Shown piece after piece: positions 3,891 through 59,203 of a DNA stretch of 64,000 bases. Location: positions 77,008-141,007 of the IMG/VR virus record IMGVR_UViG_3300009514_000374; one strand, 5' to 3'. Under the pieces are notes generated by a model. The model ran no database searches and was not told the origin of the DNA. It worked only from the letters and a program-made list of their open reading frames with translations. The position numbers and the translations under genes were made by a program. Positions within the stretch are counted from its first letter, which is position 1. Every line of letters starts with the position of its first letter. Source of the stretch: a virus.

Positions 3891-4220
3891 GTGTCTCTAC
3901 GCAAGAAACTGATTCGACTCGCTCACCAGAAACCTGAGCTTCGCCCTCACTTGCTGCCGCTGCTCAAGACGGCGATGTACGGCAAGGCGTGGATCACGAA
4001 TTTCAACCGGGCCACGAACATGCTGTGGGTCGGCGTGCAGGGCTACGACGGCATGGTTCGGATGTCGATCAGTGGATCGGGCATGGTCACGTCGCATGGG
4101 CGCCATCCCTCACAGGTGTCTCACAAAGCGCACCAGATCGTTTCCAAGTTTCGGAATGAAGGATTCCCTCGCATTCCACCGCACGGCCACTGGCCGCCCG
4201 AGGTGAAGCCGGACAAATGA
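3891..4220 (+). CDS. Small protein with N-terminal LRKKLIRLA..KPELR module
   Basis: 109-aa ORF; its first 28 aa recur at 6523 and 38619. Confidence 0.65.
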   Translation: MSLRKKLIRLAHQKPELRPHLLPLLKTAMYGKAWITNFNRATNMLWVGVQGYDGMVRMSISGSGMVTSHGRHPSQVSHKAHQIVSKFRNEGFPRIPPHGHWPPEVKPDK

Positions 4221-5512: not shown

Positions 5513-6091
5513 ATGTCCGTTGAAAAGCTATTTCCAAGCATCCATGCTCGCGGTGGCGCACAGCCCCCTTTCACGATCCTCGTCGCCAACCTGACCTCGC
5601 CGGGCGACCCGAGTGTGGGTCGCAACCCCGTGCGGGCTCGTAACGGGTTCCGGCAGCAGAACACAACCCCTGTGGGCCATGCTCCGCATGGCACGGTGGT
5701 TGGAGCGCGTACCGGGACACTGCTCGGCGGCGCCTTCACTCGTAGCGGGGGCACTGTCACGATCGCCAGCGACGATTTCACTGTCCCGGCCGAGGTACTG
5801 GTCGGCCCGTTCGTACTCGTGACTGACGAGGATTTCGATGCGGATGGCCTTGGGGTCAACGTCGTGGCAACCAATCTTGCGGCGGCCATTGATGCCCTGC
5901 CTGGCTACAATGCCGTCGCGGCTCTCGCTGTCGTCACGGTGACGGGGCCGCTTGGCGCCAAGATCGATCCGATCGCACAGCGTTGGCAGTTCCGCACGTT
6001 TGGTGCGGTTGCCAACTTTACCACCATCACGCCTGACGGCGGGTTCCTGACGGGAGGGCTGCCCGAGCCGAGGGCGATGGAGATTCTGTGA
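5513..6091 (+). CDS. Hypothetical virion structural protein
   Basis: 192 aa, Gly/Ala/Thr/Val-rich, coupled to both neighbours. Confidence 0.5.
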   Translation: MSVEKLFPSIHARGGAQPPFTILVANLTSPGDPSVGRNPVRARNGFRQQNTTPVGHAPHGTVVGARTGTLLGGAFTRSGGTVTIASDDFTVPAEVLVGPFVLVTDEDFDADGLGVNVVATNLAAAIDALPGYNAVAALAVVTVTGPLGAKIDPIAQRWQFRTFGAVANFTTITPDGGFLTGGLPEPRAMEIL

Positions 6092-6640
6092 ATGCTTCCG
6101 CCGTGGGTTCGACCTCCCGATGCTTCTTGGACGGAGAAGCAGGTAGCCAAGGCGATCCTTCGGCATCTCAGTCCCGATCTGCTGCACAAGGATTGGGGGC
6201 CAGGCGGCAAGCACTACAAGCCAGGGCGGCACGAGCATTTCGGGTACTGCAACGTCGCCAGTCAAGCCTTCTACTGGCTGATGGGTGCCCGCGAGGCGGG
6301 CTACAAGGCCATGCGGGTGAAGCACGAGGGAGGCACCCATTGGTGGATCCAGTCTCCCAAAGGCAAGGTCTGGGATCTGACCAAAGAGCAATTCACGACC
6401 CCTGTGCCTTACGCCCAAGGGCGTGCGGCGGGGTTCCCCGGCCGAGGGTATTTCCCGACCCTCGCTGCCAAGAAACTGATTGAGAAGGCTCGGGCCGACC
6501 TGGAGAGACGAGGCAAAAAAGCTATGAAAGACCTACGCAAGAACCTGATCCGCCTCGCGCATTCCAAGCCCGAGCTTCGCGCTGATCTGCTTCCGTTGAT
6601 CACGGCTGCCGACCCGACCAAATCAAAGATGGTGCGCTGA
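6092..6640 (+). CDS. Transglutaminase/papain-like Cys-His-Asp protein with C-terminal KPELR module
   Basis: GYCNVASQA..THWWI..VWDLT gives a Cys-His-Asp order; C-terminal MKDLRKNLIRLAHSKPELRADLLPLI. Confidence 0.5.
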   Translation: MLPPWVRPPDASWTEKQVAKAILRHLSPDLLHKDWGPGGKHYKPGRHEHFGYCNVASQAFYWLMGAREAGYKAMRVKHEGGTHWWIQSPKGKVWDLTKEQFTTPVPYAQGRAAGFPGRGYFPTLAAKKLIEKARADLERRGKKAMKDLRKNLIRLAHSKPELRADLLPLITAADPTKSKMVR

Positions 6641-7335
6641 TGGAAACGAAGAAACTAGAACGCGACGAGCTACTGCGCCTGATCCCGAATGGGGCTAAGC
6701 GTGTTGCGGTCGTGGATGAATTGGGCAAGGAAAAGTGGCGCAAGGTTGACGAGGTTTTGGACACGGACCTGATCCAATTCAAGGCCGGGAAGCCTCGCAC
6801 GATGAAGCGCGACCCTGGTCGCAAGAAGGATCCGACCGCCGCACCGGCCGTGAGCGAGCACGTCGAGGGGTTGATCAAGGCCAAGTACAAGGCGTTGGAC
6901 GAGGACCCGCTCACGACGGTCATCGGACGTGACCCCGAGTCGATCGACGTGCTTCACGAGGTCATGCGGGGCATCGCGCAAGAGTCTGCATCGCTGGAGT
7001 TTGAGCGCAAAGAGGCCGAGCGGAAGGGCGAGGACACGCGCCAGGTTTCCGTGAGCCGTCTGCAAGCCCTCAAGGCCGTGGGCGACACCTGGATCAAGCG
7101 CGCCGAACAGCTACAGGCCAAGGGCGTGAACCTGAGCAGTCCTGAATTCAAGTTGCTGTTCGGATTCATCGTCCGCACGTTCCGTGAGGTCATGGTCGAT
7201 GCCGGCCTTCGACGTGAGAACATTGACCGGATCTTCTCCCTGCTTTCGCAACGCCTGGAGGACGAAACGTGGGAGGACGAGGCCCGTGCTGCGATGCGCG
7301 GCCAAGCCCGACCTGATGGGGTAGTGGAGCACTAA
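6640..7335 (+). CDS. Probable terminase small subunit
   Basis: 231-aa helical protein immediately upstream of the large terminase; positional inference only. Confidence 0.5.
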   Translation: METKKLERDELLRLIPNGAKRVAVVDELGKEKWRKVDEVLDTDLIQFKAGKPRTMKRDPGRKKDPTAAPAVSEHVEGLIKAKYKALDEDPLTTVIGRDPESIDVLHEVMRGIAQESASLEFERKEAERKGEDTRQVSVSRLQALKAVGDTWIKRAEQLQAKGVNLSSPEFKLLFGFIVRTFREVMVDAGLRRENIDRIFSLLSQRLEDETWEDEARAAMRGQARPDGVVEH

Positions 7336-7336
7336 G

Positions 7337-9373
7337 ATGGGCCTTGGGCTTGGGAACATTGTCCTCGATGAAGGGCGCGATGCTGACAGCACCGCCGAAA
7401 TCGCGGACATTATCACCTTCATCGAATCGGATTGGGGACTCGGCCAAACGCTGTTCCCGGTTCAGAAGGTGATCCTCAAGGCCCACTACGGCATCCCTTT
7501 GGACGACGTGCCCGAGGGTATGGACGAGGGGCAGCTTGAGCTACTGGAGCACCACAAGTTGCTCAAGCTCGCGCAGGTCGAGAACCCTCTCATTGACCCT
7601 ACGGCCAACGAGAAATACCTGATCCGCTACATCCTGCGGAAACACATCCACGTCACGGATTTCCGCAAGCATCCCATCCCTGACGTGGCCGAGTGGATGT
7701 CCGAAGCCGAGTACCTTCGCCATCTGTACGCGGAAGGTCGGTCGAACATCGCCGAGGTAATCGAGGGGCAGGAGCGCCGGGAGATGATCCTGAGCGTTGG
7801 CCGTCGCTCGGGTAAGACGACCATCTCAGCCTGCATCGCTGCCTACGAGACATACAAGCTGCTCTCCAAGGGCAACCCACAGCAGTTCTATGGTCTGCCG
7901 GATGGCAACACGATCCAGTTGATCTCGGTCGCTACGGACAAGGACCAGGCGGGTCTGCTCTACCGCGACGTTGCCAAGTATTTCGCGCAGTGTGAATTCT
8001 TCCGCACCTATCAAGCCAACGCCACGCAGTCCTTTGCTCGTTTCCAGACGCCCTCGGACATCGAGCGTCACGGCCGGTACGCGGACAATCCTAACGCTTC
8101 GGCCGCCTCGATCAACGTCACCTTCCGGTCTTGTATCGCTAAGGGACTCCGTGGTGCTGGTAACATCGTGATCATTCTTGACGAGGTTGCCCACTTTACG
8201 GACGGCGGGCAGTCCTCGGCCGACGAGGTGTACCAAGCGGTCAAGCCCTCGCTGGCTGCCTTCACTGAAAAGAACCCCTACAACAAGGCCGAGCCCATCG
8301 GACCCGTCGAAGGACGGATGATCCTGATCTCGTCGCCGCTTGGCCGTCAGGGCAAATTCTACGAGCAGTTCCAGATCGCCATGAGAGGCGGCAAGGCGTC
8401 GCAGACGATGCTCGCCATCGAGGCACCAACGTGGGAGGTCAACCCGACCATCCCGGCTGAGTTCTTTGAGTCGGAGTACGTGAAGGACACCAACATGTTC
8501 TTTACGGAGTACGGCGGCAAGTTCTCCGACCGTACTCTCGGCTGGATCGAGGACGCCCGCGACCTGCTCAACTGCGTGGACCCCAACCTCAAGCCTCGGA
8601 CCCGTGGCCTTCCCCGTGCGCCCTATTTCATCGGGCTCGACGTTGGCCTCGTGAACGACGGCACGGCGGTTGCCATCGGCCACATTGAGCAGGAGAAGAT
8701 CGTTCTCGACTACATCGATCAGATCAAGGCGGGCGAGGGCGAGTACGCCAACTACGAGCGCCTGGAATTTGAGGACGTGTCAAAATGGATCCACGACCTC
8801 TCGCGGAAATTCCTGATCGATGAAGGCATGTTCGACCAGTGGGCGGGTATTCCGTTGGAGCAGGCGTTGCTCAAGAAGGGCCTGAAACAGATCAAGGCCA
8901 CGCACTTTACTCAGGTGCTCAACAGCCAGGTCTTTCGGAATTTCAAGGACATGCTGTTCGACAGCCGCCTCGTTCTGTACGACTACACGGACGAGCAACG
9001 CGAGAAGCTGCGTGACAAAGAGGGCAAGGCACCGGACCACATGCCCTACTTGACCGAGCTATTGACGCTCCAGGCTGACTACCGGAGCAAGTACGTCGTG
9101 AACGTGTCCGCGCCGAACATCGCCGGGGCACACGACGACCTTTCCGACGCGCTTGTACGCATGGTTTGGCTCGCCAGCCAAAAGCTCTCCAACCGGGCGT
9201 ACATCGCTGGACGGGGCCGACAGACCGGGCCGAACCGGCATCGGATCTCGGCGGGCAAGCAGCGGAAACAGATCCTCGCCTCCAAGAAGGGGGGCAGCAT
9301 GGAGCAGCGGCAGCTACGTCGTGTAGGCCGGCAAGGTTTCATGCCTGTTCGTGGTGGAAGGCTCAAGGGGTGA
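7337..9373 (+). CDS. terL: Terminase large subunit
   Basis: Walker A GRRSGKT, Walker B IILDEVAHF, coupling motif ISSP, nuclease motifs GLDVG and HDDLSDA. Confidence 0.93.
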   Translation: MGLGLGNIVLDEGRDADSTAEIADIITFIESDWGLGQTLFPVQKVILKAHYGIPLDDVPEGMDEGQLELLEHHKLLKLAQVENPLIDPTANEKYLIRYILRKHIHVTDFRKHPIPDVAEWMSEAEYLRHLYAEGRSNIAEVIEGQERREMILSVGRRSGKTTISACIAAYETYKLLSKGNPQQFYGLPDGNTIQLISVATDKDQAGLLYRDVAKYFAQCEFFRTYQANATQSFARFQTPSDIERHGRYADNPNASAASINVTFRSCIAKGLRGAGNIVIILDEVAHFTDGGQSSADEVYQAVKPSLAAFTEKNPYNKAEPIGPVEGRMILISSPLGRQGKFYEQFQIAMRGGKASQTMLAIEAPTWEVNPTIPAEFFESEYVKDTNMFFTEYGGKFSDRTLGWIEDARDLLNCVDPNLKPRTRGLPRAPYFIGLDVGLVNDGTAVAIGHIEQEKIVLDYIDQIKAGEGEYANYERLEFEDVSKWIHDLSRKFLIDEGMFDQWAGIPLEQALLKKGLKQIKATHFTQVLNSQVFRNFKDMLFDSRLVLYDYTDEQREKLRDKEGKAPDHMPYLTELLTLQADYRSKYVVNVSAPNIAGAHDDLSDALVRMVWLASQKLSNRAYIAGRGRQTGPNRHRISAGKQRKQILASKKGGSMEQRQLRRVGRQGFMPVRGGRLKG

Positions 9374-9635: not shown

Positions 9636-9980
9636 ATGCCGAAAGGACCGCAGACCGAGGAACGTGCTGAGCGTCAGGCGAGGGACCAGGAGATCCGTCT
9701 TGCCGCGCAGGCACGGGAAAACATCGAGATGCACAAAGCGGCTGACGCGCATCTCGACGTGGCTGCGGCGGCGCTACGCAACGCCCTAAGATCGCTCCAG
9801 AACGTCCGTGTGGCGCGTCGTACTGCGGAAGGCCAGGTGCTCAAACGCAAGCTCAGGGCCGTTGAGCAGGCTGCTGCGGCTCTCAAGCCCATCGGAAGGG
9901 ATGCTGGCCGGGTTCGGGCGACCGGGCCGGACTATTCCGACCCCGATTTGTCTATGGGAGGGCCAGGGGTGAATGGCTAA
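9636..9980 (+). CDS. Small hypothetical coiled-coil protein
   Basis: 114-aa ORF overlapping the portal start. Confidence 0.45.
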   Translation: MPKGPQTEERAERQARDQEIRLAAQARENIEMHKAADAHLDVAAAALRNALRSLQNVRVARRTAEGQVLKRKLRAVEQAAAALKPIGRDAGRVRATGPDYSDPDLSMGGPGVNG

Positions 9981-11973
9981 GAAACGCCAAAAGCGGCGTC
10001 GAAAGACCGCTCCACGGCGCTATATCGCCGGATCGGGGGACATCCCCAAGAACGAGGACGCCCAAACGGTTGCCAGCGTGCCGGACAAGCATAAGCGGCC
10101 TCAGTTGTCGGTTGGCAAGCCGCAGCCGATCGTCCTTGGGTCGATGCGATCCAAGGTGGCGAATATCGGCGCAGGCGGATCGGGTTTCGGGGGCGGTGGG
10201 ATCGGAGGACCCGGATCGGGTAACACGGGTGCTTTCGGATCCGGGCTTGGTTCGGTTGGCGGCTCGGCGATCGGAAGCGGCGGGAATTTCTACTCGCCCG
10301 AGCTTTCGACCGATTTCCTTGAGCTACCGCAGAGCCTAGACGAGCAGCGTAACTACTTTCGGTTTTTCTACCGCGCTGACCCGTTCGTCGGGCAGGCGAT
10401 GGACATTCACCGCGAGCTTCCGCTGTCGAAGATCCGGCTTGGTCGCCCCGAGGCCAAGGACAAGGATCTTGCTCAGCAGTCGCTCGATTTCTGCAAGCGG
10501 TGGACGAAGATCGTTGGGCTGCTCCAACGGCTGTCGGAAGGGCTGCACGAGTACAACGTCATTGGCGAAACGCACTGGTTCATCGAGGACGACAACCCCG
10601 ATATGCCGGAGGACGTTCGATACGAGATCAAGAACATTCTCCACGAGGATGGCAACTTGGAGGAGACCAAGGAGCTTTGGCCGGACGCGGACGAGCGCGC
10701 CTCCGCGTGGATGAAAAAGAACTACAAGGGGTGGACGCAGGTTCGCATCCTTCCGCCTGAGCAGATTCACATGGACTCGTTCCCGATGTCGGACGAGATC
10801 CTGGTATCGCTCATTCCCGACTCCAAGACTAAGAGTGTGATCGAGCAGGCCGACCAGGGTGACCAGCGTGCGGTCAAGGTCATGGAGTCGATGCCGCCTG
10901 ACATCGTGATGGCGGTGCGGCACGGCGAGAACGTCCCGCTCAATACGGACCCAGACGCAGGGTCGTTCTACTACTACATGGCGAACAAGGTGAGCCAGTA
11001 CGAGCCGCGAGGGCACTCTCGGCTTGAACGGTGTATCCGTACCCTCGTCTACAAGGACAAGCTGCGCCAGGCGCAGACCTCCATCTCGTCGCGGCACATG
11101 ACGCCTATCCGGCTCGTGTACGCCGAGAACATGAACGAAGCGGACACCGAGGCGCTGCGTGATCAGATCGACCTCGCGCTCCAAGACCCCGACTACTCGA
11201 TCGTCACCAACTTTCAGGTGACGTGGGAGGAAATGACGCCGCAAGGGCGTCTGCTGGAGCTTTCGTCCGAGTACGACCTGATCAACCGGGAGCTTTATGC
11301 GGGTCTTGGAGTGACAGAGAGCCTGCTCTCAGGTGAGTCGAGCTACAGCGGCGATCGGATCAACCTGGAGGTGATCAACGTCCGCTACATGCTCGTCCGT
11401 GAGTTCCTACAGGATTTCGTGGAGAAGAACCTGTTTGAGCCGATGTGTCGGCGCATGGGGTTCATCGAGACGGACGATTGGGGCAACGATGTCGTCGTTT
11501 GCCCGAAGCTCTCGTTCACGAGGCTGGCCCTCCGCGACAACCAGGACGTGTACGACGCCCTGTTCAACCTCTACCAGAAGGGCTCGTTGCCGATTAGCGT
11601 GATCTACGACCTGCTCAACGTGGATGGGGAGGGTGCGACCGAGGAATTGCAACGCGATTTCGCCACGTTCAAGGACCCCACCTACAACGAGGTACTGCGT
11701 GGCCTGTACTCGCAGGCGGGGACCAAGCTCGGCGACCAGTCGAATTTCGTGGAGAAGCAGGCCGAATACCTCGGACTGGACTACAAAGAGGAAGCCGAGG
11801 GGATGCAGCGGTTCGGATCGCAACAGGCGCCCTCGCAGCCCCAAGGTCAGCCCGCCGGGATGGACGTGTTGGCTTCTCTCGTGGCTGAGCGGATCGCCGG
11901 CCAGGTCGCCGATTTGGTCGCCGACAAGATCGTGGAAAAGCTACAAAAGCGGTCTCCTGAGAGCACCGAGTAG
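9973..11973 (+). CDS. Portal protein
   Basis: 666 aa downstream of terL; FYRADPFVGQAMDIH, EYNVIGE, RGHSRLERCIRTL, LGVTESLLSG and FEPMC segments follow the portal-family order. Confidence 0.85.
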   Translation: MAKKRQKRRRKTAPRRYIAGSGDIPKNEDAQTVASVPDKHKRPQLSVGKPQPIVLGSMRSKVANIGAGGSGFGGGGIGGPGSGNTGAFGSGLGSVGGSAIGSGGNFYSPELSTDFLELPQSLDEQRNYFRFFYRADPFVGQAMDIHRELPLSKIRLGRPEAKDKDLAQQSLDFCKRWTKIVGLLQRLSEGLHEYNVIGETHWFIEDDNPDMPEDVRYEIKNILHEDGNLEETKELWPDADERASAWMKKNYKGWTQVRILPPEQIHMDSFPMSDEILVSLIPDSKTKSVIEQADQGDQRAVKVMESMPPDIVMAVRHGENVPLNTDPDAGSFYYYMANKVSQYEPRGHSRLERCIRTLVYKDKLRQAQTSISSRHMTPIRLVYAENMNEADTEALRDQIDLALQDPDYSIVTNFQVTWEEMTPQGRLLELSSEYDLINRELYAGLGVTESLLSGESSYSGDRINLEVINVRYMLVREFLQDFVEKNLFEPMCRRMGFIETDDWGNDVVVCPKLSFTRLALRDNQDVYDALFNLYQKGSLPISVIYDLLNVDGEGATEELQRDFATFKDPTYNEVLRGLYSQAGTKLGDQSNFVEKQAEYLGLDYKEEAEGMQRFGSQQAPSQPQGQPAGMDVLASLVAERIAGQVADLVADKIVEKLQKRSPESTE

Positions 11974-12023
11974 TCCCTTCGTAATCCGCTATTCGGGCTA
12001 TGGGCGTGCCTCTAGCGAAGGCT

Positions 12024-15000
12024 ATGGCCCACAAGCCCACAAAGGCGCGGACAGCGTACACCGTCGAACCCACTGAGGGTGGCGTTGTGATCTGGCCCGA
12101 GAATCGGATCGAGCAGGCGTTTATCGACACGTTTGCCGCTCGGGTTGCGGGTCAGAGGCTTGGCGTGGCGAAGGGTCACAATATCGACCTGTCCGAAGAT
12201 CCAATTCACCCGGACGAGGACGACGAGGACGAGTGGAAGGTGGACGAGGAACCGATGTCCATGGGGCATTCGGAGCTTCCCGGCGCCGAGGGCCGGACGG
12301 CGCGGGACTGGACCGCGCCAGGCAGAATCCTCGGCTTTAAGATCCGGTACGACGCCGAAAATGTAATGAGCCACCATCCCATCGTGATGGCCTTCGACGG
12401 GGAGACGGAGATTGGTTTCGTTGAGTTGGTCATGCTCGATGACCCTCCCTCTCATTGCGAGGACGAGTGGACTGAGGTTAGGGACGAGTTGGAACGACGG
12501 GGTGCCCTTGGTGTCTACACCTACGCGGTAGTGGAGTCCTGGCTGGCGGACGAGTATCACCACAACCGTATCGGGGTGGGGATGTACGAGGCGGCGATGG
12601 CTGCTCTGTCAGACCCCCAGGAGCCAGTCATCCTGGTTGCGAGTCGGTGCAGAGGCGGCCCTACGAGCCATCAAGCGAGTCGTGTGTGGGAGTCCATGGC
12701 GCGTCGCTACGTGTCCTCGGGACAGGTTGTTTCGTCCGTTCCCAAGGCCAAAGCTCGGGTGGCGAATGTGGCTCGCCGCTTCATGGCGAAGGCGACGGGC
12801 ACCCGTGCCGGCGACGGCTCCAGCGTGGGGTTGTTCATCCGCCTGCCGAAGCACCTGGCGACGCAATTCCCTGGCCTCGGAGAGAACGACTCGTCTCCAA
12901 GCCACGTCACGTTTCTCTACATCGGGGATTTCAAGGACAAGGACGAGCAGGCCCGGTTGGTCGTCACTCTGCGCGACATCCTTCGACGCTGGTGGCCCAA
13001 GTGTAAGGCAAGCCTCGGTGACCTGGAGTATTTCGACCACCCCGACAAGAACCGCCGCGTCCCGCATGTGTCCGTCGATTTCGACAAGGATCTGTCGGGG
13101 TTCAAGCAGCGGGTCATGCAGGAGCTTCGGGACGAGGGCTTTGAGGTCGGTGACAAGTTCCCCGAGTTCAAGCCACACGTCACGCTCGCGTACATGCCAG
13201 GCATGGACGGGGAGTGGGACAAGCCCGTGCCAGAAGGCTCGTGGGATGTCACTGAGATGGAGATATGGGGGATGCCCCGCGTACACACGATTCCAATTGG
13301 CAAAGCGTCGAGTCAACGAGTGGCTTCTTTGTGGCTTGAGGGGAGCACCCACGCGAAATCGGTTGCTTTGATGCGGTTCCTGTCCCGATTGGCTCAGCGT
13401 CTCGGGGTTGCCCGTCACACCTACGTCGTTGGCGGGGCCATTCGGAATTTCCTGATCGAGCAACCGATCAAGGACATCGACGTAGTGATCGACTCGGTTG
13501 CTGCGGGCAAGGATTCCGAGTGGTTTGCCGAGCAGGTTGCGCGTGCCATTCCGGCGCCAACAAACCTGACGACGAACCAGTACGGCGTTGCCATCCTGAC
13601 CGTGAAGGGGGATTGGGATCTGGACGGCGAAAGCCTCAAGGGCGAGGTGATCGAAATCGCCAACGCTCGCAAGGAGAGCTACGGCGGTGCGGAGGGTAAG
13701 GGCTACAAACCACACATGGTTGAGCCGACAACCATTGACGAGGATGTCTACCGGCGCGAATTCACGTTCAACTGCATGGGAGGGGATACTCTGATTCCCA
13801 CCAAGCGGGGTATCCTTCGCATTGATGAGATCGCGTCTCGTGAGAACGGGGACCGGCAAGATATTCATTTGACAGTGGCGGGACAGGACGGTCCTTCGGA
13901 GGCTGTGGGATGGCAGTACAGCGGGTACGCGCCGACTCTGCGGGTGACCTCCGAGTGGGGACACACCTTCACCTGCACCCACCACCACCCCGTTCTGGTT
14001 CTGCGGGGGCATGACCATGAGTGGGTTCAGGCAGATCAGCTTGCAGAGGGCGACCTGCTTTGCGTGCCCGTGCGGCAGGTGTCGAGGCGAGACCCTCTCG
14101 CTTTGGATTTGCCTGACCCGGTGCAGCCCAAGAGGGGCAGGCTCAAGGGTGCTCGGAAGCCTGAGATAATGACGCCGGAGTTGGCGTTTTTGATCGGGTG
14201 TGTGGTGGCAGAGGGTTCCAACACCCACAAGCGGGTGTCTTTCAGTAACTCCGACCCCAATCTCATTTCCCGCTACGCCGAGTGCTTCCACGCCACTTTT
14301 GGATTTCTCCCCTCCCGTAATAAGGTGGTGAGCAAAGGCTCTGTCCGTGTCCTACGGGGGGTGGAATTTGTCGCCAACCATGACGGCTACGACATTTACG
14401 CCGACAGTAAAGCAGTGGTGGGCTGGTTGGAAGACCTCGGCTTGTACTGCGGAGGCTCCAAGGACGGGAAATCCGCTTCCCATCACAAGGTTGTTCCGTG
14501 GTCGATCCTACAAGCGGACGCGCGTAGCCAGTGGGCGTTTCTTGCGGCTTATCTTGAAGGGGACGGATCTATCCGGCCGGATACCGGGCGCATCACATAC
14601 TGTTCGGCCTCCCCGAAAGTGCGTCAACAGTTGCAGGTGCTCCTGGGAGCGCACGGCATCTTGAGCAAGGTGAAGGATAGGTTTGTCTACCTTAGCGCCG
14701 TGGATTCGGCTCTCTTGTGGGAGAAGGTTCGCCCGTGGATGGTTACCAAGGGGTTCGACTACACGCGAGACAGCAAGTCCCGTAACCGTTACGGAATTCC
14801 CGCAGATCACATCCGGGGGTTTCTTGCGGGCCGTAAACAAGCTCGTTCCGTGTACGCCACGGACGAGGGCGGGCTCCGGTCCCTTCCAGACGCTCACGAG
14901 CCTGTCCGTAAGGTTCAGCGGCTTCTACACGACGCCTACGCTCGGGGAGATTTCGACGGGCTCCTGTCGAGTCTCAAGATCATTAGCGGAGACGAACACG

Positions 15001-15881
15001 CCAAGCTACAGCGGTTGTTTGACCTGGGCTACCAGTATGTCGAGGTTGCGTCAGTTGAAGATGCTGGAGATCAGGACGTATTCGACATTTCGATGGGTGA
15101 GGGGGTAGAGCCCGCTTTTGTGGCGAACGGTGTGGTGGTTCACAACACGCTCATGTGGCGGTTGCTGGACCTGACCCACGGACCCGAGAAGGCCGAGGTA
15201 ATCGACCTGACCGGCTGTGGTCGCCGGGATCTGGAGCAGGGCGTTCTCAAATGCCCGCGTGACCCCGACATCGTGTTCGCGGACGACGCGACTCGTATCC
15301 TTCGGGCGATCAAATTCACCGGCAAGTACGGATTCAAGATCCCGCCTGACCTGGCCGCCGCGATCAAGCGCAACGCTCCGAAGATGAAGCAGATGCCCTA
15401 CGAGGCGTTGAAAGACATCCTCGTGGATAACATCTTGCCCGAGCCGACCGCTCGCAAATCGCTCCAGCAGATGAAGGATCTCGGCATCCTCGATGTGCTG
15501 CACGACATGATTCAGGAGCAGAAGCCGTTTGCTTCGGCCATCGCCAAGGTGCTCGGTCGGGAGCGTCGGGTTCAGGTTCTACTCGACTGGCTGCATCTTG
15601 GCCTGCCCGCCAAGACCCCGCTGCATTTCCTTGGGGCGCATGAGCGAGTCCGAGTCCGCGAGATCACGGTTCCGATGGACGAGGACAAGGCGACTGATTG
15701 GATGCACCGGCTGATCAAGCCTCCGGTCAACAATAACGAGGTCATCGAAGCTCACTCGCTCGTTGGGCGGGACCGCGCGATGATCATGCCGCTTGCTCGC
15801 AAGCTGATTCTCGTAGACCCCGACCTCGCCTACGACGGCCGCGCCCTGACGCGCGAGGTGATTGAAAGGTGGGTGCGGTGA
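12024..15881 (+). CDS. Polyprotein: GNAT-like + 2H phosphoesterase + class II CCA/poly(A)-polymerase nucleotidyltransferase (intein-containing)
   Basis: GNAT-like WLADEYHHNRIGVGMY; two HVT motifs (12903, 13176); YVVGGAIRN, KDIDV, EDVYRREFTFN, DATRILRAIKF. Start is 12024 (GAAGG RBS) or 12000. Confidence 0.85.
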   Translation: MAHKPTKARTAYTVEPTEGGVVIWPENRIEQAFIDTFAARVAGQRLGVAKGHNIDLSEDPIHPDEDDEDEWKVDEEPMSMGHSELPGAEGRTARDWTAPGRILGFKIRYDAENVMSHHPIVMAFDGETEIGFVELVMLDDPPSHCEDEWTEVRDELERRGALGVYTYAVVESWLADEYHHNRIGVGMYEAAMAALSDPQEPVILVASRCRGGPTSHQASRVWESMARRYVSSGQVVSSVPKAKARVANVARRFMAKATGTRAGDGSSVGLFIRLPKHLATQFPGLGENDSSPSHVTFLYIGDFKDKDEQARLVVTLRDILRRWWPKCKASLGDLEYFDHPDKNRRVPHVSVDFDKDLSGFKQRVMQELRDEGFEVGDKFPEFKPHVTLAYMPGMDGEWDKPVPEGSWDVTEMEIWGMPRVHTIPIGKASSQRVASLWLEGSTHAKSVALMRFLSRLAQRLGVARHTYVVGGAIRNFLIEQPIKDIDVVIDSVAAGKDSEWFAEQVARAIPAPTNLTTNQYGVAILTVKGDWDLDGESLKGEVIEIANARKESYGGAEGKGYKPHMVEPTTIDEDVYRREFTFNCMGGDTLIPTKRGILRIDEIASRENGDRQDIHLTVAGQDGPSEAVGWQYSGYAPTLRVTSEWGHTFTCTHHHPVLVLRGHDHEWVQADQLAEGDLLCVPVRQVSRRDPLALDLPDPVQPKRGRLKGARKPEIMTPELAFLIGCVVAEGSNTHKRVSFSNSDPNLISRYAECFHATFGFLPSRNKVVSKGSVRVLRGVEFVANHDGYDIYADSKAVVGWLEDLGLYCGGSKDGKSASHHKVVPWSILQADARSQWAFLAAYLEGDGSIRPDTGRITYCSASPKVRQQLQVLLGAHGILSKVKDRFVYLSAVDSALLWEKVRPWMVTKGFDYTRDSKSRNRYGIPADHIRGFLAGRKQARSVYATDEGGLRSLPDAHEPVRKVQRLLHDAYARGDFDGLLSSLKIISGDEHAKLQRLFDLGYQYVEVASVEDAGDQDVFDISMGEGVEPAFVANGVVVHNTLMWRLLDLTHGPEKAEVIDLTGCGRRDLEQGVLKCPRDPDIVFADDATRILRAIKFTGKYGFKIPPDLAAAIKRNAPKMKQMPYEALKDILVDNILPEPTARKSLQQMKDLGILDVLHDMIQEQKPFASAIAKVLGRERRVQVLLDWLHLGLPAKTPLHFLGAHERVRVREITVPMDEDKATDWMHRLIKPPVNNNEVIEAHSLVGRDRAMIMPLARKLILVDPDLAYDGRALTREVIERWVR
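13773..15146 (+). mobile_element. Intein with LAGLIDADG homing endonuclease (458 aa)
   Basis: Begins CMGGDTLIPT; block B TCTHHHPVL; endonuclease blocks LIGCVVAEG and FLAAYLEGDG; ends FVANGVVVHN followed by Thr+1. Confidence 0.93.
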
Positions 15882-16963
15882 AGCCATCGGCAAACCGCGT
15901 CGCGTCGCTCCACCGCGCTGGCTATTTCAGCGTCGGCGACCTGATCTTGTTTGGAAAGTACAAGAACAAGAAGGGCAAGATCGTCGGGTTTGGCCGCACG
16001 GAAAAGAACGTGCCTACGGTCATTGTCGAACCCATCCCCAAGGGCCGCAAAAAGAACAAGGAGATCGGCCTGTTCAAGATCTGGCATGGCGTGCCTGAGA
16101 AGCGTGCGATGACGATGGAGGCTCGTGTAGCTCACCGCTATGCTTTTGAGCACCCAAGCGAGAAGGCTCGCCAGCAGTACCTCAAAGATCACCCCGGAGC
16201 CGATCCTAAGAAGCACCATGTCAAGGGGCCGTCGAAGCCGAGCAAGGTCAAGAGTCTCGTAGATCGGGCGCTCGCCAAGGTGAAGGGCGCGAAGGACCAC
16301 ATGGTCGCTGCGGTTCGTGCGGCCCCGGCCGAGGTTCACTCGTTCCTGTTCGACAAGGCCCATCGGAACAAGCGGACCAAGGAGCTTGCCGCGAAGCTCA
16401 AGGAGAACGCACCCAAGGCTAAGAAGGCTCTGTTCAGCGCCCTCAAGCGCGAGCTTTCGTCGTTCCCGAAAGCGGGGGCCATCCTCAAGCGGGTCGCAAC
16501 GGGAGGCAAGCTCCAAAAGGGCGATGTCAAGACCCTCTATGGTGTCGGCGTCTACATCGCGGGCACTGTTCTTGGCGCGATGTCGGGAGGGGCTGCGGGC
16601 GCGGCTTTGTTTGGGGCCTCCAAGGCGCTCCTGCACAGCCTCAGTTTGCACGCTTCGATCAAGGCAGTCAGCCATCTCGCCGACGAGGGGTTCCTTGGCT
16701 ACGAGGCGGTGGAGAGTGGCGCGATGGCGACGGGCCTGGCCGATGCGTTGCCGGTGAACACGAGTGACCTGCCTGGCTTGGGCAAGGTGTTTGACGTGCT
16801 CAAAGAGGTGGTCACAGCAGCCGACGAGAAGGACGACGAATACCTGCGCAAGTTTGTTGAGGCCATGTACGACGACATTGTGAAGCAACTGGAGCAGGGC
16901 ATCAGCGACGCTGACATTCGGGACGTTCTCGTTCACGGGGTTCAGCCAAAGGGGGCCGCATGA
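15878..16963 (+). CDS. Hypothetical head-associated protein (SH3-like N-terminus, hydrophobic helices)
   Basis: GTG overlaps the upstream TGA; FSVGDLILFGKYKNKKGKIVGFG; two R-V-A motifs. Confidence 0.6.
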   Translation: MKPSANRVASLHRAGYFSVGDLILFGKYKNKKGKIVGFGRTEKNVPTVIVEPIPKGRKKNKEIGLFKIWHGVPEKRAMTMEARVAHRYAFEHPSEKARQQYLKDHPGADPKKHHVKGPSKPSKVKSLVDRALAKVKGAKDHMVAAVRAAPAEVHSFLFDKAHRNKRTKELAAKLKENAPKAKKALFSALKRELSSFPKAGAILKRVATGGKLQKGDVKTLYGVGVYIAGTVLGAMSGGAAGAALFGASKALLHSLSLHASIKAVSHLADEGFLGYEAVESGAMATGLADALPVNTSDLPGLGKVFDVLKEVVTAADEKDDEYLRKFVEAMYDDIVKQLEQGISDADIRDVLVHGVQPKGAA

Positions 16964-19900
16964 GCGCAGCACGCATCGCCGCCCTTCACATGGCGAAGGC
17001 CAGGTACAAGGACAAAAAGGTCGTCAAGGACTCGGACGGGAAGGATATGACCGTGTACGAGTACAGTGACCGCCAGGTTTCCAAGCGGAACAACGACAAG
17101 GCCGATCGTGTGCAGAAGCTCCGGTCCCTTCGATCCGATCTCGTGAAGCGGGTCAAGAAGGACTACAAGGCCAAGGATCTCAAGACGCGGCTCACGGCGT
17201 TGGCCGTGGGTTTGATCGACCATACCTACGAGCGTGTTGGCAACGACGAGAGTGCGGGCGAAGGCCACTTTGGCGTGACCGGCTGGCTCGTCAAGCATGT
17301 CTCGTTCTCGGGCGGCAAGGCGACGATCCGGTACGTCGGTAAGAGTGCAGTCAAGCAGACCAAGGTCGTGACTGATCCGGGGGCGGTCAAGCTGCTCAAA
17401 GAAGCGGTCAAGGGCAAGAGCCCCGGCGATCAGATCTTCACCTGCGACGACGCGGGCGAGAAGGTGTGCGTGACCTCGGCCGAGGTCAATGCCTACCTGC
17501 CGGAAGGGATCACGGCAAAGGATCTACGAGGGCTTCACGCGAACGAGGAAATGCTCGTCAAGCTCAAGGCGCAGCGTAAGGGTCCGCTCCCGAGTGACAA
17601 GAAAAAGCGCGAAAAGAAGCTCAAGGACGAATTCAAGCGGGCGCTGGAGGAAACGGCCAAGGTGGTCGGCCACGAGCCGAGCACGCTCCGTAGCCAGTAC
17701 CTCGTCCCTGCGATGGAGGACGCCTACATGAAGGACGGCACGGTGATCGACAAGCTCAACGAAAAACGCTCGTCGCTGGAGGCCGCGTGGGATCACTTGG
17801 CGACCAAGACGGACGAGGAAAAGAAGGACGAGGACGCTGATAAGAACGTCCGCAAGGACCCGAAAAAGAAGCCTCCGCGCTACGACCTCCGTGACAACAA
17901 GATTCACGATCCTGATCTCAATGGGGATCCCGACATGAAGGACGAGGCCAAGGCCGACAAGGACCCTGATCTCTCCCTCAACTACAAGCGAGTTGCGCGA
18001 CGGTTCTTTGCGCGCAAGACCTCACCTACGGAATCCGGCGCCAAGGCGCTGTGGGAGCGGCACAAGCAAAAGAGCCCCGGCACCAAGCTCAATTGGCAGG
18101 ATTTCTTTGAGCGCAAGGACAAGGGCACCATCCAAGAGGTTCGGGACGCGATCAAGCCCAAGGACAAGCCCAAAGACGAGCCCGCGAAGCCCAAGAAGCC
18201 CAAGGCCCCGGAGGACGAGGGCGAGGCTAAGGAGAAGCCCGAGGACGAGGACAAGGCCAAGAAGAAGCCCGCCGAAGGCGAGGCGCCCACTGAGGATCCG
18301 CAGGCTGAGCAAGCCGCCAAGGAGAAGGAGCACAAGGAGCGTGTTCAGAGTGCCGTGACCGATTCGGCGCAGGCATACGACTCCGTGTTCGGCGGAGGCC
18401 GTGTCCAGGTTCCCCGCGAGGTAAGCCGATACCTTCCCCAAGCCCTCTCCAACATGACGCCGGAGCAGGTCGAGAGTTTCAACCAGGCCACGCAACAGCG
18501 CGCTCAGGCGATGCAGAACGAGGGTTTGCGTGGTGAAAATGTGGTCGAACGGGCTGAACGGACGCTGGATGACTACAGCGACGAGCAGATCGAGAACATC
18601 TCTGATCCAGCACGGCTGGCACAGGTAGTTGCTGATCTTACGTTCTCCGAGCACGTCCTGTCCCTCGACAAGAAGCGGCAAAAAGGCGTGAAGCGGGCGC
18701 TTAGCAAAGCGTTCGACCAGATCGAGAAGCAGTTGCAAAAGGAAACCAAGGACGGGCGGTACCGCCTGCCTTCGGAAATTCGACGCACGATCTCAGACCA
18801 GATGGGGAGCTTGGAGCCCGATCAGATCCAACAGTTCGTCCAGGGCGTGACGGAAAACCTGGCGGACAATGCGACCAAGTACGACGACAGCGATGAATCT
18901 GTCGAGCGCGCCCAAGGTGATCTTGAGGAATTCTCCGAGCTAATCGAGGGAGTTTCGGATCCGAATGTGATGGCGCAAGAGGTCGCTTCGCAGATTCGCG
19001 CGAAGCGGGTCGTAGAGAAGCACAAGCTCAAGCAAGGCGACCGCAAGCGGGCGATGCGGAAGGTGAACCAGGCGCTTGCACGCTCTATGGGCGTTCTCGT
19101 GTCTGAGCTTCCCCGTGACCTGAGAGGCAAGCTCGATGCGGCCATGGAGCACATGGACCCCTCGGATGTTCTGTCCGTGTCCGAGGCCGTGACCGACGAG
19201 GCAGGCAAGCTCATGGCTCGGTACGGGGAGAACCCCGAGGATCCGGGCCTGCTTGCAGAGGCCGTGCAGATGGCGTCCGTGGACAAGCTCAACACCACTG
19301 ACCCTCGGACGCTCGCGCAACAGGCGGCTTTGCTGCTCATGGCTCACGGGAAGCTGGCGAGCCCGTTTGAGGTTGGCGGGACCGAGGTTAGCAACGTCCA
19401 AAAATCCCCCGAGGAATTGAAAGCTCGCGGGCAGGCTGCGTTCGACAAATTCGCTGCGCTACCGCAGGAGCTTCGGGACACCGCTGCCAAGGATCTGCAT
19501 CGCCGGATCAAGGCCACGAAAAAGGACACCCCCGAGCACGCTGAGTTGAATCGGATCTTGGATGGCCTTGCTCTCGCGGCTTGGACTGATCCTGAGAACG
19601 AGAGAATTCCCTCGATCCCCGGCCGCGCCACGAGCGCAAGGTTTGTCGAGATCGCTAAGGCGATGCGGGCAGACGGCAAGATCCATGAATTGCTCGACGC
19701 GGCCACGGACCAAAATTCGTCGGCAGCGATCGGATCCATGCGTGACGCCATGGCGCGCATGAGCGACGACTCCCTGATCCGGGCCATGAAGGACAGCCAG
19801 CCGGAGCTTGCGAAAGCCCTGGAGGACTCCATGGCGGGTGGCATCGAGGCCCAATACCTCACGTCCGAAAAGACCGAAATCCTCCGTGACGTGATGCGGG

Positions 19901-20928
19901 ACATCGCCGTGGACGAAATGGCCTTCATGGATGCCGTGATCGGGGATGCGATGGAGGCCGGAGGCAAGGACAAGAGCGTGATGAATTTCCTCGACCCCAA
20001 CGAGCGCGGGAAATTCATCAAAAAACTCACCGAGAAGCGGTCAAAACACTCCAAGGGGTTTCTGGAGCTACTTAAAAACTTGGGAAGCAAGTTTCAGAGT
20101 CTCAGACCCACGAAAACGGCCGACCAAAACTCGGGTTGGGGAGTTTCAAATCTACGGTCGGAAGAATTCAAAATTAAGCTCCGCCAGGAAAACCTGCGTG
20201 GTGTCCTCAATTTCGTGCAGGCGGAATTTGGGGAACTGCCAAATTCGCCTGCGGTACTCGCAATTCAGCGGTTTTTGGAAACTGGAAATCCCGATTTCCT
20301 GAATTCGGAACCCGCAAAGGGCGAGTTTGGTCAAGAGGACGAGAATTCGGGGAAAAAATCGTCCTCCAAATTTCAATCTTCCCCCTATACCGGAGCACTA
20401 CTAAGTGCAGGGCTCGACGCCTGCGCTGGACGCTCCGTTGCGCCGTCAAGGAGAACACCAATGTCAGAAGCTCTAAAGCAGGCGAAGCTGCTCACCTCTC
20501 ATTTCGACAACGTGGCCGAGCTGGTTCAAAAGAACGCGGCCCTCTTTCAGATTCCCGAGAAGATCGCGTTCGACTTTGCGAAGCGCTGCGATCTGATTTC
20601 GGATCATCTGGAGAAGCACGCTGGTCAGTGGACGATGGACCCCAAGGGGAATTTCAACATCGGCCCCGCTCAGCCCTTCAATCCGGCTGAGATCGGCGAA
20701 CAGGACGCGACGCCTCCCAAGACGGAGCCCGACGAGCCGTACATGAAAAAGAATTTCATCCAAGAGGAATTCGATGAACTGCGGGAGGTTCAGCAGACCG
20801 GCGGTTTCAGCAACGCGCGTGCAGCGGCTCAGGTCAACGCGACCTTCGCCAAGATGGCCGCCAAGGTTGCTGAGCTTGAGGCCAAGCTCGCTGCAAGCGA
20901 GATCCCGACCGCTGACACCGCCGAGTAG
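16960..20928 (+). CDS. DNA topoisomerase IB catalytic domain fused to a long helical extension; probable nested gene from 20461
   Basis: Catalytic pentad in order: ERVGN (R), YVGKS (K), AKDLR (R), VGH (H), LRSQY (Y), within the first ~270 aa. Confidence 0.85.
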   Translation: MSAARIAALHMAKARYKDKKVVKDSDGKDMTVYEYSDRQVSKRNNDKADRVQKLRSLRSDLVKRVKKDYKAKDLKTRLTALAVGLIDHTYERVGNDESAGEGHFGVTGWLVKHVSFSGGKATIRYVGKSAVKQTKVVTDPGAVKLLKEAVKGKSPGDQIFTCDDAGEKVCVTSAEVNAYLPEGITAKDLRGLHANEEMLVKLKAQRKGPLPSDKKKREKKLKDEFKRALEETAKVVGHEPSTLRSQYLVPAMEDAYMKDGTVIDKLNEKRSSLEAAWDHLATKTDEEKKDEDADKNVRKDPKKKPPRYDLRDNKIHDPDLNGDPDMKDEAKADKDPDLSLNYKRVARRFFARKTSPTESGAKALWERHKQKSPGTKLNWQDFFERKDKGTIQEVRDAIKPKDKPKDEPAKPKKPKAPEDEGEAKEKPEDEDKAKKKPAEGEAPTEDPQAEQAAKEKEHKERVQSAVTDSAQAYDSVFGGGRVQVPREVSRYLPQALSNMTPEQVESFNQATQQRAQAMQNEGLRGENVVERAERTLDDYSDEQIENISDPARLAQVVADLTFSEHVLSLDKKRQKGVKRALSKAFDQIEKQLQKETKDGRYRLPSEIRRTISDQMGSLEPDQIQQFVQGVTENLADNATKYDDSDESVERAQGDLEEFSELIEGVSDPNVMAQEVASQIRAKRVVEKHKLKQGDRKRAMRKVNQALARSMGVLVSELPRDLRGKLDAAMEHMDPSDVLSVSEAVTDEAGKLMARYGENPEDPGLLAEAVQMASVDKLNTTDPRTLAQQAALLLMAHGKLASPFEVGGTEVSNVQKSPEELKARGQAAFDKFAALPQELRDTAAKDLHRRIKATKKDTPEHAELNRILDGLALAAWTDPENERIPSIPGRATSARFVEIAKAMRADGKIHELLDAATDQNSSAAIGSMRDAMARMSDDSLIRAMKDSQPELAKALEDSMAGGIEAQYLTSEKTEILRDVMRDIAVDEMAFMDAVIGDAMEAGGKDKSVMNFLDPNERGKFIKKLTEKRSKHSKGFLELLKNLGSKFQSLRPTKTADQNSGWGVSNLRSEEFKIKLRQENLRGVLNFVQAEFGELPNSPAVLAIQRFLETGNPDFLNSEPAKGEFGQEDENSGKKSSSKFQSSPYTGALLSAGLDACAGRSVAPSRRTPMSEALKQAKLLTSHFDNVAELVQKNAALFQIPEKIAFDFAKRCDLISDHLEKHAGQWTMDPKGNFNIGPAQPFNPAEIGEQDATPPKTEPDEPYMKKNFIQEEFDELREVQQTGGFSNARAAAQVNATFAKMAAKVAELEAKLAASEIPTADTAE

Positions 20929-21493: not shown

Positions 21494-22948
21494 ATGGCTT
21501 TCCTACGCTACGCGCGGGCCAAGGTCGTCAAGCCCCACTGCTCTGGACAGCGGTGGCGCAGGGTCCGTACTGCCTCGACGGCAGCGCCCTCGGCCAACCT
21601 GATCACTCAGGCCAACGAAATTCTCGGCTCGGAATTCGACCCGAGCAAGTATCTCCTGACCCACGCGACGATCGTGTGCTCGGTGGATACGTCAGAGGTT
21701 CCAGGGGTCAAGACCGGCTCTGTTATGGATCCCATGACGGGCAAGCGGGTCAACCGCAAGTGGGCCAACTACCGCGTTGCTCCCGAGTGCGACCAGTTCA
21801 TCAACAACAACAACGACTGTTGGGACCGGGGCGTGCTGCTCAAGAGCTATCGCACGTTCGTCGGCGCCCACAACTTTGTTGAGCACGTTCAGATCGAGGA
21901 ACAGTCCAAGGGCCGGATCATCGACGCGGTAGCCCGCGACATCGGCCCCTCGGTCTACACGGACATCCTGATTGCCACCAGCCGTGACCACACCCAACTG
22001 GTCAAGGACATCGAGGCAGGCAAGATGGCTACCCTCTCGATGGGTTGCTCGGTCACTGAGACGATCTGCACGAAATGCGGAAACGTCGCGGCCGATGAAA
22101 CCGAGATGTGTAACCACATCAAATACGAGAAGGGGAACTACTTTTTCGATGACCGGGGCGGCAAGCACCGGATTGCCGAGCTTTGCGGCCATCCGAGCAT
22201 CGACCCCAACGGAGGCGTGACTTTCATCGAGGCGTCGTGGGTCGCTACCCCGGCGTTTGGCGGTGCGGTCATGCGGAACATCCTCACGCCGAGCCAGGCC
22301 GTCGCCGACAAGGCAGCCAAGGTTCTCGCTTCGCCTCCGCCTGAGTGGCAGGACGGTGGAATCGACAAGGCTGCGCGCATCGTTCAGGTGCCCGCTGTCG
22401 TGGCCGAGGGTGAATTCGATTTCGGGGACGAGGGCGAAGGCGAAGGCGACGAGGGCGGTGGCGAAATGCCAGACGCTCCGGCGCAAGAGGCTCCCGCAGC
22501 CCCCGAAAAGAAGGACCAACTCCAACAGCTTGAGGACGAGATGTACTCGGAGATGGCTAAGCGAGTGAAGGATCGCATGAAGCGTGATCTCGCCGGTCCT
22601 GAACCCTCCCTGGGAGAGCCTTCACACTCAACTGGTGAGGACGTGATCAAGCAAGGGCGCAAGAAGCAAGCGTATGCCTCTTTCGTCAACAACTTGGTCC
22701 GTACCGCAGATTCCGATGCAGCCCTGATCGATGGGCTGGCTCGGGCTAATCAGCAAATGGGAATTCAAATCGTCCGCGACCTGTACGTGGCGTCTCTCAA
22801 TGTAGGCGCCACGTCCGAGTACGCTTCTTTGGTCGAGTACGTTGGCGCTTGTCGCAAAGCGCTCGGCCGCAAACCAACTCACGGAGAGGCTACACAAATG
22901 GTGCGTCTTGGGAAGCTCCTCTCCAAGTGGAAACAGCAACCCAAGTAG
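21494..22948 (+). CDS. Prohead maturation protease (HK97/assemblin fold) with Zn-finger insert
   Basis: NFVEH..KGRIIDA (His), LSMGC (Ser), CTKC..CNH, FIEASWVATPAF; upstream of scaffold and capsid genes. Confidence 0.85.
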   Translation: MAFLRYARAKVVKPHCSGQRWRRVRTASTAAPSANLITQANEILGSEFDPSKYLLTHATIVCSVDTSEVPGVKTGSVMDPMTGKRVNRKWANYRVAPECDQFINNNNDCWDRGVLLKSYRTFVGAHNFVEHVQIEEQSKGRIIDAVARDIGPSVYTDILIATSRDHTQLVKDIEAGKMATLSMGCSVTETICTKCGNVAADETEMCNHIKYEKGNYFFDDRGGKHRIAELCGHPSIDPNGGVTFIEASWVATPAFGGAVMRNILTPSQAVADKAAKVLASPPPEWQDGGIDKAARIVQVPAVVAEGEFDFGDEGEGEGDEGGGEMPDAPAQEAPAAPEKKDQLQQLEDEMYSEMAKRVKDRMKRDLAGPEPSLGEPSHSTGEDVIKQGRKKQAYASFVNNLVRTADSDAALIDGLARANQQMGIQIVRDLYVASLNVGATSEYASLVEYVGACRKALGRKPTHGEATQMVRLGKLLSKWKQQPK

Positions 22949-59199: not shown

Positions 59200-59203
59200 G
59201 AGC

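Follow-up and report, generated by a model that had tools for sequence, protein, structure and literature searches.

A stretch of 64,000 nucleotides of viral DNA (IMG/VR record IMGVR_UViG_3300009514_000374, positions 77,008 to 141,007, called here the window) carries, just behind its portal gene, a single open frame at 12000-15881 (plus strand) coding for 1293 amino acids, or 835 once an intein is spliced out. This frame combines three enzyme domains: a module with a GNAT fold, then a 2H phosphoesterase, and last a nucleotidyltransferase (NTase) of class II, split by the intein. We slightly favour the hypothesis that they form a polyvalent chain of separate enzymes, carried as cargo of the phage head and reshuffled among relatives, with packaging, cutting and activities all inferred here. 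An earlier reading of the same DNA (the original prediction) had already recognised the three domains and the portal directly upstream (9973-11973, PHROG portal, E 1e-26), and had proposed an injected counter-defence kit whose 2H and CCA enzyme would form a coupled repair unit. The head-module context speaks, by inference, for the injected kit; the coupled unit is not sustained by our results.

According to our hypothesis, expression of the gene would be late, along with that of the head genes, and splicing of the intein would leave the 835-residue chain. Short R-V-A-x-R-F/W tags would carry this chain into the prohead, and the head protease would cleave (K/R)-x-A junctions, freeing the GNAT, the 2H and the NTase, which would enter the cell with the DNA. 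Each enzyme would then act independently after injection: the NTase would keep tRNA ends chargeable, the 2H would clear cyclic phosphates from RNA or destroy nucleotide signals (cyclic or 2',5' phosphodiester), and the GNAT would acetylate a host target. The 2H and the NTase may thereby contribute to a common goal, sustained translation, without being an obligate pair. The parts of the frame are as follows.

12000-15881, plus strand: whole open reading frame, 1293 amino acids; similarity to the orthologue in the related locus L001 already starts at the first Met
12000-12311, plus strand: acidic N-terminal module of about 104 amino acids, in which lie a degenerate tag (12132-12158) and, at 12294, an R-T-A junction
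12312-12749, plus strand: module with a GNAT fold, belonging to a phage cargo family
12756-12782, plus strand: second tag/junction, an R-V-A motif with a helix-like tag
12798-13301, plus strand: 2H phosphoesterase, His302-x-Thr and His393-x-Thr, predicted LigT/YjcG/AKAP7-like fold
13311-13334, plus strand: third tag/junction, which travels with the NTase family
13350-13772, plus strand: NTase N-extein, with motif A DxD (13473-13481), third carboxylate, basic/acidic motif, flexible loop and RRE (13752-13760)
13773-15146, plus strand: intein with LAGLIDADG homing endonuclease, 458 amino acids (Pfam Intein_splicing, LAGLIDADG_3)
15147-15881, plus strand: NTase C-extein, with motifs C, D (DDATR, 15282-15296) and E as well as body and tail, and lacking an HD domain

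Only 26 bases separate the portal stop from the first Met at 12000. The start at 12024 given in the original prediction is probably not the right one, because the similarity with L001 begins at the Met of 12000.

The closest known parallel is offered by the polyvalent proteins (Iyer 2017, PMC5512222), which are likewise multidomain, reshuffled conflict enzymes of the head module, are packaged in virions and contain both 2H and GNAT domains, the 2H being found fused to MuF or portal; ART-PolyVal, another domain of this kind, is present in the genome of the window and fused to homologues. The resemblance has limits: the NTases of that survey are Pol-beta types of mobile elements and CCA is never mentioned there (PMC5512222), and the window chain has no MuF, its modules being linked by R-V-A tags instead.

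Modules reshuffled behind the portal

The gene is flanked by terminase, portal, head protease and capsid genes (a head module), and is the occupant of a variable slot just after the portal. In the sister protein P0087, the N-terminal module is followed by the NTase, without 2H; in L001, the order is N-terminal module, 2H and NTase, without GNAT and intein; in P0203, the same three enzyme modules come in a different order (2H-GNAT-NTase). Since this is the one other case of the trio, and its order differs, we rejected the idea of a conserved GNAT-2H-NTase trio. The other cargo partners encountered are TopoIB, ART-PolyVal, Fic, HD, HAD_SAK, AAT-like, NUDIX and SOD.

Of 138 NTases, 17 are fused to the 2H, which is either N- or C-terminal, and the tree requires 11 or more gains or losses to explain this (the joined window NTase used for this tree carried two intein residues and lacked Thr1050, which cannot affect its placement). 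About 88% of the NTases are without a 2H fusion, and 11 of 34 2H-NTase fusions have 124-729 amino acids of other modules in between. A reverse scan starting from the 2H gave two loci, and we therefore turned to searches of whole genomes to examine linkage. Where these showed the NTase distant from the portal (by 104, 29 and 34 kilobases in G001, G003 and G015), the 2H stays beside the portal in three cases out of three, or about two independent ones, G003 and G015 being related; the same searches gave no case in which the 2H accompanied the NTase to a site distant from the portal. In LR745208 (485 kilobases), there is no NTase, and the post-portal slot holds HAD_SAK and TopoIB. Because the 2H follows the portal and not the NTase when the two are parted, their adjacency appears to reflect a shared cargo slot after the portal. 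This, together with the lability of the fusion and the intervening modules, argues against the dedicated unit of 2H and CCA enzyme seen in the original prediction, and adjacency within cargo chains should be regarded as poor evidence for a common pathway.

The GNAT module illustrates the same mobility. Taken alone it has no Pfam or NCBIfam match, and its ESM-Atlas features place it in GNAT clusters among viral GNATs (0.94, 180/256 shared). Its 64 homologues, several of which match Pfam Acetyltransf_1 (PF00583), were recovered by the full HMMER search only, word-indexed and contig searches giving none; the family profile, when compared with the PDB, finds named acetyltransferases in 8 of 10 matches (best E 0.005). 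The family consensus contains the acetyl-CoA loop R/Q-x-x-G-x-G/A, whose first Gly is an Arg in motif A of the window module (12555-12575); most members carry Gly there, and several homologues K, R or H. The homologues, too, bear tags, and they occur in fusions with ART-PolyVal, TopoIB, Fic, 2H or PAP2. The N-terminal module is 48% identical in L001 and L002, both with a canonical tag, and in L001 it runs straight into the 2H. None of the 37 NTase loci, the closest and L001 included, contains the GNAT module; it is a recent plug-in.

The 2H phosphoesterase and a possible coupled tRNA repair

The 2H domain is recognised by Pfam (2_5_RNA_ligase2, E 1e-6), and its structure model has a predicted local distance difference test (pLDDT) of 88. 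The His and Thr of both HxT motifs are invariant among 18 members, and the domain is 89% identical to that of L001, with 61 silent and 19 amino-acid-changing codon differences; for the NTase head the corresponding figures are 51 and 23. Both are therefore under purifying selection.

The nearest proteins, by sequence and by fold, are of the LigT/ThpR type, with E. coli ThpR/LigT and the D. radiodurans CPDase, which also have two HxT motifs, as best matches. In the fold comparison, LigT/ThpR, YjcG, AKAP7, Usb1 and rotavirus VP3 were found at Z 12-14 (the LigT group at 12.7-14.2; LigT/YjcG at Z 14, with a root-mean-square deviation (rmsd) of 2.6-3.3), and the Acb1 structures at Z 8.0-8.6 (rmsd 4.0, 125-133 aligned residues). 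However, ThpR requires Arg130, three residues past the second Thr (HxTxxR, PMC4201822), and this position is a Tyr in the window 2H, as in 86 of 91 domains; the score against NCBIfam TIGR02258 (32 bits, cut-off 66) is below threshold as well. The Pfam Acb1 model (PF23474) also stays below its threshold (16.4 bits against a cut-off of 27, covering 16 residues). By the tests run, the 2H belongs to neither the ThpR nor the Acb1 family. Among its viral fold neighbours are proteins of actinophages that carry annotations for capsid morphogenesis or a structural role, and that correspond to the portal- or MuF-linked type of PMC5512222.

As to the substrate, we think that hydrolysis of RNA 2',3'-cyclic ends is the leading prediction, at slightly less than an even chance, that action on immune nucleotide signals is somewhat less to be expected, and that some other substrate is unlikely. 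The second of these possibilities can be extended to a distinct explanation of the 2H, as a degrader of cyclic oligonucleotides or 2',5'-oligoadenylates, Acb1-like or VP3/ns2-like, that would work independently of the NTase. It would agree with the second motif of the 2H, which with its Tyr resembles that of Acb1, with weak Pfam Acb1 matches in 10 of 18 members (best 2e-7), with Atlas neighbours that include clusters with 25% Acb1, with the rotavirus VP3 and AKAP7 2',5'-phosphodiesterases at Z 12-13, and with the role, as ribonucleases or signal degraders, proposed for portal- or MuF-linked 2H domains (PMC5512222). We nevertheless consider it doubtful, given the much lower scores of the Acb1 structures compared with LigT/YjcG, the insufficient Pfam score and the HAD_SAK neighbours, which indicate RNA ends. 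The suggestion of an Acb1-like signal destroyer, made in the original prediction, is in line with the second motif but weakened by the fold and by Pfam. Acb1 itself, an anti-CBASS nuclease (PMC9117128), shares the 2H fold and the HxT/HxT tetrad; it is, however, a stand-alone protein of 144 amino acids, compact, with a lid at its C-terminus and an aromatic cage, and active on cyclic di- and trinucleotides, whereas the window 2H is a module within a chain and has a larger, LigT-like body.

The alternative of a coupled tRNA 3'-end repair would have a nuclease of the host cut off the CCA end and leave a 2',3'-cyclic phosphate, the 2H open this phosphate, HAD_SAK or Tpt1 remove the remainder, and the NTase rebuild CCA. 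The product of the ThpR-type reaction carries a 2'-phosphate (PMC4201822), and a third enzyme, a phosphatase, is therefore expected for repair. Candidates exist: the HAD_SAK RNA-repair phosphatase is found in the post-portal slot in G001 (beside the 2H), G012 and LR745208, it is fused to the 2H in P0253 and to the NTase in P0077 (and an HD domain to the NTase in P0153), and HAD_SAK and Tpt1, some enzymes of which remove terminal 2'-phosphates (PMC6573784), are both present in the two near-complete relatives. The HAD_SAK genes, which are either joined to TopoIB and 2H or close to them, lie at:

L148, 12205-13788, minus strand
G001, 92855-93238
G012, 124571-124969

This alternative can also claim the CPDase-type folds nearest to the 2H (Z 12-14), the fusion of 2H and NTase in both orders on several branches of the tree, and the rank of the NTase as top partner of the 2H (32 of 87 longer proteins, counted with a profile derived from NTase-selected loci; TopoIB is second with 11). 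Yet NTase and then TopoIB is also the order of the genes after the portal.

A natural comparison is with enzymes in which the pairing is established. The E. coli multifunctional CCA enzyme combines an NTase with an HD domain. In this enzyme, as in the mammalian ANKZF1-ELAC1-TRNT1 pathway (PMC10275265), which provides a precedent for coupled repair, removal of a cyclic phosphate is paired with CCA addition; but there the pairing is fixed and the phosphate fully removed, whereas in the window the pairing is labile and a monoester is expected. Coupling is further weakened by the tracking of the portal by the 2H, by the many unfused NTases (including P0087, the closest relative, without 2H), by the Tyr in place of the Arg essential in ThpR, and by the phosphatases themselves: neither HAD_SAK nor Tpt1 was found in the contig to which the window belongs (30% complete), and Tpt1 is untagged and lies among tRNA genes in G006. 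RNA ligases, which would bear on a possible part of the 2H in anticodon repair, are patchy among relatives (Rnl in 7 of 17, RtcB in 3 of 17), with none in the partial contig. In total, we regard coupled repair as rather unlikely. A related proposal, that the clade packs 2H, HAD_SAK and the CCA enzyme of the RRE type (described below) by means of the R-V-A tag and so counters a defence that clips acceptor ends, is a speculative one, to which we give a low probability; if true, it would mean a virion-delivered CCA enzyme, implying an immunity of this type in the host, and a rescue set acting before any phage gene is read.

The nucleotidyltransferase and its intein

The third domain is very likely a tRNA enzyme of the CCA type, as the assignment to the CCA/poly(A) family in the original prediction had implied; class II motifs and fold both support this. 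Pfam finds the PolyA_pol head and the RNA-binding part, and the model of the intein-free NTase of L001 (pLDDT 94) matches the T. maritima CCA enzyme 3H38 over the whole length, head, neck, body and tail (Z 22.4, rmsd 5.7, 295 aligned residues), and E. coli poly(A) polymerase with Z 18.2. It belongs to a phage-only family of 521 proteins, whose nearest cellular counterparts share about 30% identity with it; a search of GTDB genomes gave no member of this family (best match 31-34%). Ninety-eight proteins of the family show no variation at the two Asp of motif A, at the third carboxylate, in the basic/acidic motif and the loop, at the two Arg of motif B, or at the D and R of motif D.

Two details of the original prediction need adjustment. 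The template motif, motif D, is indeed intact, but it reads DDATR and not EDxxR (the family consensus is DDPTR in 111 of 120), DDxxR being a recognised conserved form (PMC7947759). RRE for RRD in motif B was read correctly; it is, however, no oddity, since 114 of 119 family members have RRE and 5 have RRD, versus RRD in 71 of 71 cellular relatives. A lesion of a single gene can thus be ruled out, both by this family norm and by the purifying selection described above. It is possible, as was suggested, that RRE alters specificity, but this would be a trait of the family, and the 5 members with RRD are close ones.

The basic/acidic motif (R-x-E) and the full-length loop that follows it align to 6IBP and 3H37. 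Loss of loop and basic/acidic motif marks CC-adding enzymes (PMC7947759), and their presence rules out this candidate; A-adding enzymes owe their specificity to the C-terminus, and motifs do not reveal it (PMC7947759). CCA is encoded by 17 of 20 tRNA genes here, 41 of 44 in G007, 4 of 11 in G006 and 2 of 14 in G003 (sampled clusters in the last two). Because this share varies among relatives, the NTase is kept both where tRNA maturation needs CCA addition and where only repair would. We think it likely that the enzyme would add or restore the 3'-CCA of tRNAs, because the other CCA-enzyme motifs and the fold are kept and some relatives have tRNA genes without CCA; alternatively, it may add A only or have an altered specificity.

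A more radical alternative is that of a takeover enzyme, the RRE NTase adding A only, extra or wrong nucleotides (poly(A)-, CCACCA- or MenT-like tailing) to the ends of host tRNAs or mRNAs, and so stopping host translation or diverting it to the benefit of the 20-67 tRNAs of the phage. This would make sense of the contrast between RRE and the cellular RRD and of the low identity with any cellular enzyme; the NCBIfam PcnB, CCA and A-adding models score the NTase alike, all far under cut-off, and its neighbours in the cargo pool are the host-modifying ART, Fic and GNAT. We find it quite improbable, with motif D, basic/acidic motif and loop intact, RRD recurring in close members, and a plain use for CCA addition offered by the CCA-less tRNA genes of relatives. 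Moreover, the beta-turn signature that characterises poly(A) polymerases was not seen in the NTase sequence.

The known class II CCA enzymes (T. maritima 3H38, phage G gp522, Myrna gp28) share with the window NTase motifs A-E, the basic/acidic motif, the loop, DDxxR and the whole fold. The window NTase differs from them by its RRE, by a Lys where motif E ends its Arg residues elsewhere (at the last of them), by its identity of about 30%, by the absence of an HD domain, and by the presence of a portable tag and of an intein in motif B. CCA enzymes have already been listed for jumbo phages (PMC7824862); the main text of the phage G proteome paper makes no mention of its NTase, and no phage CCA enzyme or portal-linked 2H is described in the searchable literature as tagged head cargo. 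Nothing relevant was found on an intein in a tRNA nucleotidyltransferase or on an Acb1-like 2H at the portal, in searches that covered mostly literature outside subscription journals. Relative to the searchable literature, a class II CCA-type enzyme as apparent tagged head-module cargo, its RRE family and the predicted intein in motif B would be new. The phage-only family provides a direct test of the role of the invariant Asp of RRD, and bears on whether phages inject tRNA-repair activity.

The intein spans Cys592 to His-Asn1049, with Thr1050 at position +1, and sits at the end of motif B. It has the standard features of class 1 inteins (Cys1, block B His, penultimate His, terminal Asn, +1 nucleophile) and two LAGLIDADG blocks, and would make the NTase dependent on splicing. 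L001, whose intein-free NTase lies at 8001-9152, has an empty allele, and the insertion site is also occupied in L025 and P0188. In L003 (6860-6900), the NTase contains the first nine intein residues only and resumes 20 residues into the C-extein, which is either a deletion scar or an assembly error. The terminase of L028 has an intein related to that of the window NTase, and the portal genes of L016-L018 and L020 have an in-frame insertion of about 1.6 kilobases near residue 355-364, probably an intein too. Other NTase inserts, of about 1.1 kilobases, encode a Vsr/DUF559-like endonuclease open reading frame (L019, 8693-9820; L028, 8738-9950), and an insert of about 25 codons with a stop lies at the same place in L006 (8710-8790; about core residue 237). 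All three are possible introns; Rfam gave no match at them.

Tags, junctions and the head module

The original prediction placed an address-like helix before each of the three domains. We scored these with a tag profile built from NTase termini of other phages, with 30 shuffles as control (maximum 9.0 bits). The tag at 13311 scores 20.6 bits; the one at 12756 reaches 7.5 bits, about the top of the shuffles; the one at 12132, with 1.0 bit, is at chance level. The last is canonical in L001, where it is part of the shared N-terminal module with no GNAT after it, and what directly precedes the GNAT in the window is the short R-T-A junction at 12294. The helix at 13311 is therefore upheld, that at 12756 is borderline, and that at 12132 fails.

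A tag was found in 79 of 120 NTase family members, at the N end in 41 and at the C end in 38, like a portable signal. The core of the junctions, (K/R)-[TVI]-A, occurs 32 times in head-module proteins, 14.4 being expected (among them copies at the termini of the portal, the protease and the presumed scaffold), and 6 times in non-virion proteins, 11.6 being expected; in the frame studied here, 5 of 5 copies fall within the linkers, i.e. 10% of the frame. The comparison with T4 is instructive. Its internal proteins and Alt have a capsid-targeting sequence that is cut by gp21. In both systems, presumably injected enzymes bear a short tag and protease-type junctions, which for the window are predicted ones; the window differs by junctions ending in Ala and not in Glu, by tags that are also internal or C-terminal, and by its capsid lineage.

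Could the chain simply not be packaged, being an ordinary late or cytoplasmic multidomain protein whose tags are chance or linkers? The weakness of two of the three tags, and the fact that CCA enzymes of cultured phages are ordinary genes (93 records), would be in line with this. We think it unlikely, given the enrichment of the junction motif in head proteins and its depletion in non-virion ones, the distribution of the tag at either end of the NTases, and the location between portal and head protease.

It should be acknowledged that several observations weigh against a packaged chain of independent enzymes. The junction motif was chosen post hoc, after the data had been seen, so that its enrichment is support for, and not proof of, head-protease junctions. 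Of the three named tags, only that at 13311 has a clear score. Two thirds of the stand-alone NTases are encoded outside the head module, and for these the case for packaging therefore rests on the tag. The first rank of the NTase among 2H partners fits a real coupling. The tRNA genes of the phage itself mostly encode CCA, so that maturation is not an obvious job for the NTase here, and the motif RRE has lost an Asp shared by all 71 cellular relatives.

The neighbouring genes of the head module are the following.

9973-11973, plus strand: portal protein (PHROG 16240 portal, E 1e-26; synteny across 16 loci)
15869-16963, plus strand: next tagged open reading frame, 364 amino acids; several relatives have its N-terminal module joined on behind the NTase
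16960-20928, plus strand: tagged open reading frame, 1322 amino acids, with a topoisomerase IB head; a conserved gene of the clade, lying after the portal and before the head protease
21494-22948, plus strand: candidate head maturation protease, the presumed cutter of the junctions (PHROG 18299, E 2e-10)

In L004, L010, L020 and L021, the TopoIB frame is joined with 2H and NTase in chains of 2100-2500 amino acids. A TopoIB packaged in the virion, if it is so, would be reminiscent of poxviruses. In its capsid protein, the phage shares 92% identity with LR745208 (an uncultured huge phage of 485 kilobases) and 38% with Bacillus phage G, and the source is probably an uncultured jumbo phage of about 470 kilobases with a capsid lineage like that of phage G. 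The contig comprises 141 kilobases (estimated 30% complete) and 20 tRNA genes, with clusters at genome positions 258-964, 7242-9123 and 11128-11502 of G000; the differences in the share of CCA-encoding tRNA genes within the clade were read from these and from L142-L144. NTase-bearing relatives have genomes of up to 400-500 kilobases with 30-67 tRNAs.

ART-PolyVal and a second GNAT-like domain are found on further tagged frames (G000, 12148-12918, L129; window, 59096-61459). A CTAT(A)-like motif, possibly a late promoter, precedes several tagged genes by 12-45 bases (upstream of window 12000; genome 3036, 12148, 39077, 115626, 135811 and 139708). A second portable peptide, of the L-I-R-L-A-H type, stands at the start or end of several unrelated proteins (window 3891, 6523 and 38619; genome 26542-28274, 41548 and 74700). 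Finally, a frame of 677 amino acids (G000, 4082-6115, minus strand; L129) has, by eye, receiver-, PAS-, GGDEF- and EAL-like parts, which is unusual in a phage.

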